The position numbers and the translations under genes were made by a program. A stretch of 64,000 nucleotides of DNA from Candidatus Gottesmanbacteria bacterium RIFCSPHIGHO2_01_FULL_40_15 (GTDB taxonomy: Bacteria; Patescibacteriota; Microgenomatia; 2-02-FULL-39-11). The notes under the pieces are model-generated. The model did not search any database and was not told where the DNA came from. It saw only the letters and a program-made list of their open reading frames with translations. Position 1 is the first letter of the stretch, and each line of letters begins with the position of its first letter. Shown one piece after another: positions 6,725-54,808 of the stretch. The DNA is taken from positions 142,888 through 206,887 of the forward strand of contig MFJF01000005.1 of NCBI GenBank assembly GCA_001779115.1, given 5' to 3'.

Positions 6725-7564
6725 TTACTCGACTTTATCGGCATAACGTCCTGAAATCCAACCTTCTTTACCCTCAGCATAAATGATTTTAATCCAGCCT
6801 GATTTTTCATCAAGGTACGGCACCTTATCGCCTGGTTTTAACTGGCCGACTTCGGTTGCCGAAATTGAAGCATCAAATCTGACCCGAAGAAAACCTGTCG
6901 GAGTTTCATTCACTAAAACGTATGGTTTTGATAACTGATCCCCTTCACCGGTTTGGGTATCAGTTTCCGGTGTCGGAGTGGGTGTTTCTAACTGTTCTCC
7001 GGACAGACTCAGTTGAAAATCTACATTTAAACGGTAATCCGGAACTGCTTTTACTCTGACAGTTCTGCCGATAAATCCGGTTGAAGTGACGGTGATGTCA
7101 TGCTCACCTTCGCTTATAGGAATATTTATAGGAGTTGCCCCTTTTTCCAAACCGTCAATTGATACCGAAGCGGCATCAGGTGTTGAAGAAACTGAAATTT
7201 CGATTTCATCATCACCGATTTTATCCAATGTGATAACTTCTCCTGATGTGGTCAGTTCACTTTGGCCTAATTCTTTTTTTATATAGGTAAGAGTTGACGG
7301 GTTAAGTGTTATTTTGTCCTGCCAAACCGAAGCGGATGATTGGGAATCATCAGGCACAAGTTTTATTACAAAAGAACCGGCAGGGTGACGGCTGTCTAAA
7401 GGTGTTTTTCCAATAAATTTTTCATCCAGATATATTCCGGCTACGGGAGTAGAAACTACTTTTAATCCGGCAACTGATGACTTACCGGCAAATATAAGCT
7501 TATAGAGAATATAGGCTATGGCTGCAAGAAATAAGACAATGACAAGAACAGTCTTCCTGCTCAT
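6725..7564 (-). CDS. Secreted/membrane-anchored PEGA-domain protein with C-terminal SH3b-like domain
   Basis: Start placed at the first in-frame ATG (MSRKTVLVIV..., signal anchor). The ORF track's TTG start at 7600 looks like an over-extension. Two PEGA-like repeats (VSTPVAGIYLDEKFIGKTPLD, VSIDGLEKGATPINIP) and a C-terminal SH3_3-like segment (GFLRVR...GWI..GRYADKV). Confidence 0.55.
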   Translation of the reverse strand: MSRKTVLVIVLFLAAIAYILYKLIFAGKSSVAGLKVVSTPVAGIYLDEKFIGKTPLDSRHPAGSFVIKLVPDDSQSSASVWQDKITLNPSTLTYIKKELGQSELTTSGEVITLDKIGDDEIEISVSSTPDAASVSIDGLEKGATPINIPISEGEHDITVTSTGFIGRTVRVKAVPDYRLNVDFQLSLSGEQLETPTPTPETDTQTGEGDQLSKPYVLVNETPTGFLRVRFDASISATEVGQLKPGDKVPYLDEKSGWIKIIYAEGKEGWISGRYADKVE

Positions 7565-7629
7565 AGACTTTATATTACATGAGAAGAACCTTATTTTCAA
7601 TCGAAATGAAGCAATTCCGACTTGATAAA

Positions 7630-7656
7630 TTAGCAGTCTATATACTAGACTGCTAA
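7630..7656. promoter_or_regulatory. Perfect CIRCE-like inverted repeat TTAGCAGTC-N9-GACTGCTAA (candidate HrcA operator)
   Basis: Read directly: 9-bp arms are exact reverse complements with a 9-bp spacer. It matches the CIRCE consensus TTAGCACTC-N9-GAGTGCTAA at 16/18 positions, and the two changes are symmetric. It lies 66 bp upstream of the PEGA/SH3 ATG and 116 bp downstream of the transposase stop. Confidence 0.45.
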
Positions 7657-7745
7657 TATAAAGTTGCCCTCCGTCTTCCCGGAGGACTTCAGAAGGATGT
7701 GAGACTATATGGCAATTTTAAGATTTGATCCGTTTTCAATGTTAT

Positions 7746-8469
7746 GGGGACGGGGGTAGATTTGAGCCTTGTTATATGCTAAAAGCCTTCATTTTTCTGT
7801 GCGTGGCAAATACTGGATTTCCAATGACATCATTATTATTTTTATACGGATCATATTCATCAAGATTTAGATTCATTCCATCCTTAATAAATTTGAGATA
7901 ATTTTCAATTCTGTTTCCCTTATCACCTAATAGGATGATAATTTTATTCATGTCTATTATCTTTCTTGAACTATTGTTTAAGTACTCTCTTAAACTGCTA
8001 TATTTATATTCTTCCGGGTTTTTGGTCATAGCCGATTTATACGGATTTAGGTGAATATATCTTGAAACTTCCAAAAAATAAGACTCTTTCTGAACAAGCT
8101 TACTTTTAAATCTATCTTGAAATAAAGGTCCCTGTCTATTGTATTTTTTATTGAAATATAGGGAATAACTTGTAAATAATCTCCCCATCAATTTAGCAAT
8201 TGGTGTTCTCTTTTCCTCAACCAGAAAATGATAGTGATTAGGCATTAAACAATAGGCATAAAAACACCAATCACCTTTCCGAAGAAGTCCATTTAATATT
8301 TCAAGCAATCTTTCATAATCTTTATCTTCATGAAATATTTGGTTTTTGTTAAGCCCCCTATTAAAAATGTGATAAAAACCTCCGGGAAATGTCAGTCTAG
8401 CTATTCTTGGCATTAATAATTTTATAGCACTTTTAAGCTGTCAATACAATATATTCTACCCCCGTCCCC
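7746..8469 (-). mobile_element. IS200/IS605-family (HUH Y1 transposase) element bounded by perfect 14-bp inverted repeats
   Basis: GGGGACGGGGGTAG (7746-7759) and its exact reverse complement CTACCCCCGTCCCC (8456-8469) flank the tnpA ORF. The element is 724 bp, the size of an IS200-type insertion, and sits between groEL and the PEGA gene. Confidence 0.55.
7772..8413 (-). CDS. tnpA: Y1 HUH transposase, IS200/IS605 TnpA / REP-associated tyrosine transposase (RAYT)-like
   Basis: 213 aa. HUH motif (LMPNHYHFLVEE) and the Transposase_17 signature RYIHLNP...EEYKYSS carrying the catalytic Tyr region. Confidence 0.8.
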   Translation of the reverse strand: MPRIARLTFPGGFYHIFNRGLNKNQIFHEDKDYERLLEILNGLLRKGDWCFYAYCLMPNHYHFLVEEKRTPIAKLMGRLFTSYSLYFNKKYNRQGPLFQDRFKSKLVQKESYFLEVSRYIHLNPYKSAMTKNPEEYKYSSLREYLNNSSRKIIDMNKIIILLGDKGNRIENYLKFIKDGMNLNLDEYDPYKNNNDVIGNPVFATHRKMKAFSI

Positions 8470-8479
8470 GATATACAAA

Positions 8480-8506
8480 GCCCCGAGAAAATCGGGGCTT
8501 TTTTTT
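8480..8506 (-). terminator. Intrinsic (bidirectional-type) terminator after groEL
   Basis: GCCCCGA-gaaaa-TCGGGGC hairpin 22 bp past the groEL stop. T8 run on the + strand; A-run before and a UUUGUAUAU tract after on the - strand. Confidence 0.5.
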
Positions 8507-8528
8507 GTTTTTGTAATGCTTTAGTTCT

Positions 8529-10175
<1,647 letters not shown>

Positions 10176-10220: not shown

Positions 10221-10523
10221 TCAGTCAATAACCGCGAGAATATCTTTTTGTTCGACAAGCAACCATTCTTCCTGTCCTACCCTAATTTCTGAGCCTCCCC
10301 ATTTTTTATAAACTACTTTCTGGCCGACTTTAACATTCATGGGGAGTTTTTTTCCGTCATCTGTGACTGCTCCTGAACCGACTGCCATTATTTGTCCTAT
10401 TTGGGGTTTTTCTTTAGCGGTTTCAGGAAGAACTATGCCGGAAGGTGTTTTGGCTTCCTCTTCAAGCGGTTTTACCAAAACATTATCCAAAAGGGGTTTA
10501 ATTGAAGACGCTTTAATATTCAT
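10221..10523 (-). CDS. groES: Co-chaperonin GroES (Cpn10)
   Basis: 100 aa. IKPLLDNVLVK...mobile loop...GKVVAVG-type Cpn10. Preceded by a GGAGGT RBS. Confidence 0.93.
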   Translation of the reverse strand: MNIKASSIKPLLDNVLVKPLEEEAKTPSGIVLPETAKEKPQIGQIMAVGSGAVTDDGKKLPMNVKVGQKVVYKKWGGSEIRVGQEEWLLVEQKDILAVID

Positions 10524-10556: not shown

Positions 10557-10583
10557 TTGGCACTTAATAAAGACGACTGCTAT
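10557..10583 (-). promoter_or_regulatory. Degenerate CIRCE-like element (aTAGCAgTC-N9-aAGTGCcAA on the - strand) at the groES promoter
   Basis: Matches 7/9 in each CIRCE half and abuts the -10 hexamer, the classical HrcA operator position. Same variant half-site (TAGCAGTC) as the perfect palindrome at 7630. Confidence 0.4.
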
Positions 10584-10610
10584 TTTATGAAATGGAAAAA
10601 TACTTGTCAA
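10582..10610 (-). promoter_or_regulatory. Sigma-70-type promoter of groESL (TTGACA-N17-TAAAAT)
   Basis: On the - strand: TTGACA (10610-10605), a 17-nt spacer, TAAAAT (10587-10582), about 50 nt upstream of the groES RBS. Confidence 0.5.
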
Positions 10611-54166: not shown

Positions 54167-54808
54167 CTAATCCCTGCTTCTGATAAGAAAGACTTTTCCC
54201 TTTATTACCGTTATAGTGCAAATATTTCTGTTAATTTCGTTGCTTATTCCCCTTGTTTCGCTGCGTTTAATTTTTTTACCGGTCAGGTTATACCGACAAC
54301 CTTCAATTGTAAGAATTGCCGAGGAAGTAAAAGGGATTACTGACAAATACTTGTAATAGGCGGATTTTAAAACTGAAATTTTTTTATCAATAAGACTTAC
54401 TTCATTGTATTCATCTTTTATTACGGCAGGAATTCCGGCTTTTAAGAATAAATCCAGTAATTGCACCGTTGCCATTGAATGATCCAACCGGCTGCCTGTT
54501 CCCGACAGGATTACGACTTTGCGGGGCACCAATTTTATTGCTTCCAATATGGCCAGATGCATATCGGTGAAATCTTTTTTTTCAGGATATAACTTTACTT
54601 CCGGAACTTTTTCTTTTATTTCCTTTAATGTAACAAGGGAAGGCGAGTCAAAATCTCCAACAGCCAAATGCGGTATTATTCCCAGATTAATTAATTTTGC
54701 AGCAGCCGAATCAACAGCAATTATAAAATCTGAACTCTTAATTTCAAAAATGAGACGTTTGGTAAAAAATCCTCCGCCGATAATAACCAGTGTTTTTATC
54801 CGGCTCAT
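54167..54808 (-). CDS. thiN: Thiamine diphosphokinase
   Basis: 213 aa. GGG...IIAVDSAA...GDFDS catalytic motif of TPK and a C-terminal thiamin-binding domain. Confidence 0.75.
   Translation of the reverse strand: MSRIKTLVIIGGGFFTKRLIFEIKSSDFIIAVDSAAAKLINLGIIPHLAVGDFDSPSLVTLKEIKEKVPEVKLYPEKKDFTDMHLAILEAIKLVPRKVVILSGTGSRLDHSMATVQLLDLFLKAGIPAVIKDEYNEVSLIDKKISVLKSAYYKYLSVIPFTSSAILTIEGCRYNLTGKKIKRSETRGISNEINRNICTITVIKGKVFLIRSRD

Follow-up and report, generated by a model that had tools for sequence, protein, structure and literature searches.

A CIRCE-type palindrome beside groESL in a Gottesmanbacteria genome is probably the orphaned operator of a truncated hsp20 gene

Results

Organization of the groESL-PEGA locus

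The window analyzed here is a 64,000-nt stretch of the metagenome-assembled genome of Candidatus Gottesmanbacteria bacterium RIFCSPHIGHO2_01_FULL_40_15. A palindrome at positions 7630–7656 lies, as a first-pass annotation of this DNA had placed it, between a transposase gene (7772–8413) and the gene of a PEGA/SH3 envelope protein (6725–7564), both on the minus strand. The features of this part of the window are as follows; related loci from other genomes and metagenomes are designated by L and a number.

6725–7564, minus strand: gene of a PEGA + SH3_3 envelope protein (Pfam PF08308 and PF08239) of a conserved Gottesmanbacteria family
7572–7600, minus strand: promoter belonging to PEGA/SH3 itself, TTGAAA-17-TAATAT; 7 nt separate its end from the ATG at 7564, and a Shine-Dalgarno sequence is absent (leaderless type)
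7622–7627, plus strand: predicted −35 element TTGATA of an hsp20 promoter, 2 nt (aa) before the palindrome and in the same register in relatives
7630–7656, no strand assigned: CIRCE operator (predicted HrcA binding site), TTAGCAGTC-N9-GACTGCTAA, assigned by its symmetry, the presence of the variant near heat-shock genes elsewhere, and orthology with the CIRCE of the L222 hsp20 gene
7646–7651, plus strand: predicted −10 element TAGACT of the hsp20 promoter, inside the right arm of CIRCE
7657–7708, plus strand: putative remnant of the hsp20 5′ untranslated region (UTR), with a decayed Shine-Dalgarno sequence, GGATGTGA, at 7695–7702 and a hairpin at 7666–7687
7709–7745, plus strand: putative hsp20 coding stub of 12 codons (MAILRFDPFSML) plus 1 nt, assigned by a match to the N-terminal consensus and by nucleotide alignment
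7746–8469, minus strand: Y1-transposase (RAYT/IS200-like) unit of 724 bp, delimited by 14-bp terminal inverted repeats and alignment to L227 (PF01797)
7772–8413, minus strand: Y1_Tnp gene, 213 amino acids (Pfam PF01797)
8477–8501, both strands: bidirectional intrinsic terminator of groEL and, formerly, of the convergent hsp20 gene, with the stronger T-run on the plus strand
8529–10160, minus strand: groEL (ORF listing, Pfam)
10221–10523, minus strand: groES (ORF listing, Pfam)
10557–10610, minus strand: groES promoter, TTGACA-17-TAAAAT, overlapping a clade-typical CIRCE, ATAGCAGTC-N9-AAGTGCCAA

The exact PEGA and Y1 protein sequences were each found on ~24 contigs, including MFKB01000020.1 of assembly GCA_001779385.1, and always at the same locus. 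PEGA homologs carry the name Candidatus Gottesmanbacteria. In 80 metagenomic loci with PEGA relatives, the gene order is groES, groEL, PEGA, and a convergent gene of a family-4 glycosyltransferase, and in most of them, the groEL-PEGA spacer is 88 to 175 nt long. A typical spacer consists of a strong terminator followed by TTGAAA-17/18-TATAnT, 6 to 9 nt, and the ATG of PEGA, with neither a Shine-Dalgarno sequence nor CIRCE. The same leaderless layout is seen at 7564–7600 of the window (minus strand) and in the intergenic regions of L135, L139, L142, L144, and L149 to L151, which suggests that the PEGA mRNA is leaderless and that this feature is conserved in many Gottesmanbacteria.

The spacer carries additional genes in L136, L137, L140, L143, L145, L154, L156, L157, L187, L195, L219, and L221. 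This cargo includes ParE/Phd toxin-antitoxin pairs, an aldo-keto reductase, and a Cys-rich secreted protein and, judged by eye, a HAD-like hydrolase, a methyltransferase, and M23 peptidases. Because the cargo is so assorted, the groEL-PEGA spacer appears to be an insertion hotspot across Gottesmanbacteria.

The palindrome is a natural variant of the CIRCE operator

The 27-mer TTAGCAGTCTATATACTAGACTGCTAA consists of two 9-nt arms separated by a 9-nt spacer and is perfectly symmetric, so the coordinates and the flawless inverted repeat reported in the first-pass annotation are borne out. The symmetry extends to 11-nt arms, TTAGCAGTCTA and TAGACTGCTAA, around a 5-nt center. Canonical CIRCE, as quoted in PMC3842655, is TTAGCACTC-N9-GAGTGCTAA. 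Compared to this consensus, 16 of the 18 arm bases are identical, and the remaining two form a symmetric C/G swap at arm position 7, one per arm, just as had been claimed. In the groES promoters of relatives, this position is free to be G or C within the Gottesmanbacteria clade. When up to three mismatches were tolerated, the palindrome was matched once in the window versus 0.01 matches expected from shuffled sequences.

To place the variant in a wider context, its exact 18 specified bases were sought in one genome per species, which yielded at least 120 loci, while our own estimate of the chance expectation is ~9 (596 Gb / 4^18). At each site, the first ORF on each flank, up to 300 nt away, was sorted by BLAST, and Pfam confirmed representatives of the HrcA, sigma-factor, HSP90, ClpB, and HSP20 groups. 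Among the matches listed (n = 121), from many phyla, a heat-shock gene adjoins the variant at 101 sites: GroES at 45, HrcA at 27, an RpoH-like sigma factor at 11, HSP90 at 7, ClpB at 5, HSP20 at 3, GroEL at 2, and DnaK at 1. Many of these sites stand directly 3′ of a TTGACA-17-TATAAT promoter. Sites of the candidate phyla radiation (CPR) among the matches listed include L024 (Paceibacterota) and L028 (Uhrbacteria), where a short HrcA, identified with Pfam, adjoins the variant. Since the exact variant adjoins heat-shock genes across genomes, CPR lineages included, the C/G swap is, as judged from this distribution, ordinary natural variation of the HrcA operator, and the palindrome is a bona fide CIRCE-type operator, i.e., a predicted HrcA binding site.

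An AT-rich palindrome arising by chance, or a plain transcription terminator, could be considered given that the region is intergenic and AT-rich. This explanation is very hard to reconcile with an 18/18 match to a defined operator, for which the expectation is well below 0.01 per window, and with the existence of orthologous copies in relatives (see below). The stem is not G+C-rich and is not followed by a T-run, and a separate terminator-like hairpin is present at 7666–7687. We therefore assign a negligible probability to it.

Several further observations emerged from the scan. The HrcA proteins of L024 (near site 927) and L028 (near site 2740) are only ~240 amino acids long, their ORF starts having been picked mechanically, and match only part of the Pfam HrcA C-terminal domain; these two cases point to a shortened HrcA in CPR bacteria. 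In Xanthomonadaceae/Lysobacterales, the exact variant lies directly upstream of a gene of the sigma-70 family (RpoH-like) in L002, L012, L020, L023, L030 to L032, L046, L055, L057, and L068, a position that implies HrcA control of the heat-shock sigma factor in this group. At six loci from Actinomycetota/Chloroflexota (L063, L088, L091, L101, L104, and L120), the variant adjoins a protein of ~115 amino acids that begins with MPTYVYKF and had no Pfam match in our scan; it may be an unrecognised member of the HrcA regulon.

groES retains its own operator

The CIRCE-like site of the groES promoter occupies 10557–10583 on the minus strand and overlaps the −10 element TAAAAT (10582–10587), with the −35 element TTGACA located at 10605–10610. 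The G variant is present only in its left arm. The first-pass annotation had described this site as a degenerate version of the palindrome fused to the −10 hexamer; the fusion is confirmed, but the supposedly degenerate form is one conserved in the clade rather than a product of decay. The groES promoter is readable in 17 relatives, and all of them share cTCTTGACAag-N-TAAA joined directly to ATAGCA(G/C)TC-N9-(A/G)A(G/C)TGC(C/T)AA. Because the same arms are found in 17 relatives, the groES site appears to be the normal operator of the clade and not a degraded copy. The clade-specific operator, ATAGCA(G/C)TC-N9-AAGTGCCAA, has its first two bases in common with the −10 element TAAAAT in the window and in L137 to L202, and its “mismatches” to textbook CIRCE are kept in the 17 relatives.

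These data bear on the earlier proposal that the palindrome is the original groESL operator displaced by a transposon insertion. The groESL genes are in the same neighborhood, and the palindrome is a better CIRCE than the groES site. However, groES has a clade-conserved CIRCE of its own in the canonical place, fused to the −10 element and of the form ATAGCASTC-N9-AAGTGCCAA in 17 relatives, and the palindrome is tied to the 5′ end of hsp20 and located 3′ of groEL and its terminator. Displacement can thus be set aside as extremely improbable.

Searches for the regulator and its other usual targets were confined to the surroundings of the locus. Genes for hrcA, dnaK, and grpE were not found among the 20 window ORFs searched with Pfam or within 10 kb beyond either window end. 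When HrcA, DnaK, HtpG, ClpB, and Hsp20 were used as tblastn queries against the window and 94 related loci, no heat-shock genes besides groESL were detected. The mean majority fraction in the 17 groES promoters is 0.92 for the arms versus 0.64 for the spacer, and for the 17 groES and six hsp20 promoters, the values are 0.92 to 0.93 versus 0.64 to 0.70. Since the arms of CIRCE are conserved while the spacers vary, these alignments imply that Gottesmanbacteria have an active HrcA system; HrcA of the source organism itself is predicted from these conserved operators, and in the CPR lineages L024 and L028, HrcA genes adjoin the variant. A literature search on HrcA in CPR/Patescibacteria and on the variant sequence returned nothing useful.

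The palindrome lies in the predicted promoter of an hsp20 remnant

A promoter scan flags TTGATA-18-TAGACT on the plus strand, facing away from PEGA. An ATG at 7709, 52 nt after the operator, opens the reading frame MAILRFDPFSMLWGRG, which ends at a TAG codon at 7757–7759, inside the transposon end; the residues WGRG and the stop codon of this ORF derive from the repeat of the Y1 unit. The identity of the frame was revealed by relatives. An Hsp20 protein encoded in L198 was used as a query and retrieved 120 CPR homologs, all with PF00011, whose N-terminal consensus is M-A-I-[IVL]-[RK]-[WF]-[NDE]-P-F-S. The window sequence MAILRFDPFS fits at 10 of 10 positions, and across all six reading frames of the window, the motif is found a single time versus 0.005 expected. 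No alpha-crystallin domain was found in the window by tblastn with intact Hsp20. Since nothing but 12 codons of the N-terminal arm is left and there is no alpha-crystallin domain, the segment 7709–7745 is, on the strength of this alignment, a remnant of hsp20 and not a gene. The palindrome is therefore located inside TTGATA-18-TAGACT and upstream of the 5′ remnant of hsp20, i.e., in or just after a heat-shock gene promoter, as expected of a CIRCE.

In the leader between the operator and the stub, the Shine-Dalgarno region is homologous to that of relatives. The Shine-Dalgarno sequence, GGATGTGA, is one change away from the consensus, relatives having GGAGGTGA. The hairpin at 7666–7687 (GCCCTCCG...CGGAGGAC) is G+C-rich. 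On the minus strand, where it follows the Y1 gene, it resembles a weak terminator; on the plus strand, the pairing of a CCTCC with a GGAGG recalls the leader structures known from small heat-shock genes. An Rfam scan of 7400–8600, this hairpin included, gave nothing at the gathering score.

Intact hsp20 promoters in relatives share the operator

Sites with up to three mismatches were sought across 725 kb of related loci. They were found in groES promoters, at the window site, in L138, L140, and L198/L200, and once, with three mismatches, in L205. In L198, the operator lies between PEGA and a divergent gene of a 145–amino acid Hsp20 (PF00011), and the hsp20 strand reads TTGACA, 2 nt, and CIRCE with TATACT inside its right arm. 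Intact hsp20 promoters of L215, L217, L224, L222, and L198 have the form cTTGACA-NN-CIRCE-ta, and their CIRCE is followed by a leader of 34 to 153 nt, GGAGGTGA, and a coding sequence beginning ATGGCAATT. The window differs in having TTGATA in place of TTGACA as the −35 element, a change that may affect the strength of the promoter, and six hsp20 promoters (the window and five CPR relatives) have cTTGA(C/T)A-NN-CIRCE in common. The correspondence can be seen by comparing the promoter region of L217, cTTGACAaaTTAGCAGTCTATATGATAGAGTGCTAAtata, with that of the window, cTTGATAaaTTAGCAGTCTATATACTAGACTGCTAAtata. The last two bases of the CIRCE spacer are TA in all six hsp20 sites and in both orphan sites described below and are variable in groES sites. 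This TA provides the −10 element TAGAST within the operator (TATACT in L198).

The most informative relative is L222, a 4.1-kb contig that was reached via the Hsp20 homolog P0156 and encodes a GroEL fragment with 83% identity to the window GroEL. Its order is PEGA (minus strand, ATG at 212), 65 nt, CIRCE (278–304), hsp20 (458–886), toxin-antitoxin modules, and groEL (minus strand). The hsp20 gene encodes a 142–amino acid protein with PF00011 that begins with MAILRWDPFS. The distance from CIRCE to the PEGA ATG is 65 nt in both the window and L222 and 64 nt in L138. Given the equal distance and the intact arrangement in L222, the window palindrome is, by positional and sequence comparison, the predicted ortholog of the L222 hsp20 operator.

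In L138 and L140, an orphan operator stands next to the groEL terminator, with 17 of the 18 arm bases kept and the −35 element decayed or altered; hsp20 is present in neither locus. Intact hsp20 was likewise not found in L219, L220, and L221, which are among the closest PEGA relatives.

A Y1-transposase unit occupies the place of the rest of hsp20

The coding sequence derived from hsp20 ends at 7745, and the Y1 unit begins directly after codon 12 (+1 nt). The unit is bounded by perfect 14-mer repeats, GGGGACGGGGGTAG, at 7746–7759 (plus strand) and 8456–8469 (minus strand), which end in GTAG, as REP sequences do; the repeat has no other copy in the window, and 0.15 copies were expected. The Y1 protein scores 70.7 bits with the NCBIfam model REP_Tyr_transpos, below its 80-bit cut-off. 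A homolog with 77% amino acid identity is encoded at an unrelated locus of another metagenome, L227. Alignment of the window with L227 (355–1079) covers 725 nt at 79% identity, and homology stops at the inverted repeats, an 11-nt core of which is present at both ends of the L227 unit. No target duplication was seen at the unit, and no solo repeats or dispersed REP copies were found in the window. The Y1 family has 3677 matches, most of ~210 amino acids, several of which are labeled Gottesmanbacteria transposase or RayT; its clusters are each found on one or a few contigs. Another 213–amino acid ORF of the window (54167–54808), considered as a possible second Y1 copy, is unrelated and encodes thiamine pyrophosphokinase domains.

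Approximately 390 nt of the hsp20 remainder are missing. A 3′ remnant of the gene was not found beyond the Y1 unit, where only 7 nt separate its right end from the terminator hairpin at 8477–8501. This close spacing argues that the rest of hsp20 was deleted. From the adjacency of stub and unit we infer truncation of hsp20 by the transposon, and the order of insertion and deletion is likewise deduced.

Hairpins are the substrates of Y1 transposases. With the 3′ end of the Y1 gene ~115 nt away, the palindrome might be a subterminal hairpin of the IS200/RAYT-like element, as had been suggested earlier, or a REP-like site that the element recognizes. The unit borders, at 7746 and 8469, leave the palindrome 89 nt outside, so it is not a transposon end. 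The first-pass annotation had proposed to see whether the palindrome is part of every copy of the element: the second Y1 copy, L227, whose homology with the window stops at the inverted repeats, lacks it. Conversely, seven relatives (L222, L138, L140, L215, L217, L224, and L198) have this operator but no Y1 gene; it is located either at hsp20 genes or in the groEL-PEGA spacer. The chance that the palindrome belongs to the element is accordingly minute.

PEGA is unlikely to be the target of the operator

The palindrome is located 65 nt upstream of the PEGA ATG, with its center near −78 relative to the PEGA start, and could be taken for an HrcA operator of PEGA/SH3, in a main role or in a secondary one kept after hsp20 loss. 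The spacing is preserved in L222, L138, and the window, and the orphan copies of L138 and L140 keep 17 of 18 arm bases without hsp20. Yet 29 nt lie between the site and the PEGA −35 element, so that promoter and site do not overlap. The same PEGA promoter stands without CIRCE in at least a dozen relatives (among them L135, L139, L141, L142, L144, L146, L149 to L151, and L153), including the closest, L135 (71% PEGA identity), and most of the 80 compared PEGA loci lack any CIRCE. Descent from a shared ancestor in which the hsp20 and PEGA promoters formed a divergent pair accounts for the preserved spacing. We consider control of PEGA by this site unlikely. Thus, of the second HrcA-regulated promoter envisaged in the first-pass annotation, the existence of a CIRCE in a promoter apart from groESL stands, while PEGA as its target, and with it the strand, does not: the promoter containing the palindrome faces hsp20 on the plus strand.

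Discussion

Our analysis makes it highly likely that the palindrome is the CIRCE of a plus-strand hsp20 promoter that was orphaned by a truncation associated with the Y1 unit and that it does not serve to control PEGA. In the ancestor, this promoter would have driven an hsp20 gene located between groEL and PEGA/SH3, convergent with the former and divergent from the latter. The predicted promoter is of the sigma-70 type, with the −35 element TTGATA, 2 nt, and a CIRCE whose right arm supplies the −10 element TAGACT. An HrcA dimer bound at 7630–7656 would cover the spacer and the −10 element and block RNA polymerase, and heat stress would release HrcA from the promoter. HrcA is known to bind CIRCE without stress and to repress class I heat-shock genes (summarized in PMC3842655), and the small heat-shock gene hsp1 of Lactobacillus plantarum, which has an HrcA element, is up-regulated in hrcA mutants (PMC3842655). 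With the Y1 unit now following codon 12 and the remainder of hsp20 gone, the promoter and operator would be left without their gene. Today, de-repression would give nothing more than the 5′ UTR, a stub of 16 codons, and antisense RNA of the Y1 gene that reaches to the terminator at 8477–8501. The orphaned operator probably still binds HrcA, and the site may still be active.

A near-perfect CIRCE between the groEL terminator and the PEGA promoter has outlasted hsp20 in three lineages (the window, L138, and L140). As the orphan operators of L138 and L140 are near-intact without hsp20, a retained function is conceivable, though we regard it as improbable, if slightly less so than control of PEGA taken by itself. 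Were it true, an upstream HrcA site could make the leaderless PEGA/SH3 gene heat-responsive, or the site could titrate HrcA as a decoy next to groESL; in the window genome, a heat-inducible antisense promoter could silence the Y1 transposase. The simple orphaning of an hsp20 operator remains our preferred reading.

The locus illustrates that even a perfect operator need not belong to the gene that it precedes, and the annotation has been corrected in this respect. Gottesmanbacteria, uncultured members of the CPR, appear to run a conventional HrcA/CIRCE regulon that comprises groESL and hsp20. The design of the hsp20 promoter is compact in that the operator supplies the −10 element, and in the window, a small Y1-transposase unit appears to have inactivated a gene cleanly. 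Both the operator and its target gene belong to known kinds, and the current view of heat-shock control is unchanged.

Among known systems, the site most resembles class I CIRCE/HrcA control of the type of Bacillus subtilis groESL and dnaK, with which it shares 9-nt inverted arms, a 9-nt spacer, and a sigma-70–type promoter. It differs from the B. subtilis type in the symmetric C/G swap at arm position 7 and in its regulated gene, which is hsp20 and is destroyed in the window genome. The arrangement within the promoter also varies: the window operator fills the spacer between the −35 and −10 elements and supplies the latter, whereas the groES site of the clade starts at the −10 element and extends downstream. 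The promoter of L. plantarum hsp1, likewise a small heat-shock gene, contains an HrcA cis-element (PMC3842655), but this Firmicute gene is under dual CtsR/HrcA control, whereas the window site, from a CPR bacterium, has CIRCE only and a 12-codon stub left of its gene. The neighboring gene resembles those of RAYT and IS200/IS605 Y1 elements in its Y1_Tnp domain (PF01797), its match to the RAYT model, and short inverted G-rich repeats ending in GTAG. It departs from RAYTs in its NCBIfam score (70.7 versus the cut-off of 80) and in the lack of dispersed REP copies in the window, and the palindrome is outside the element.
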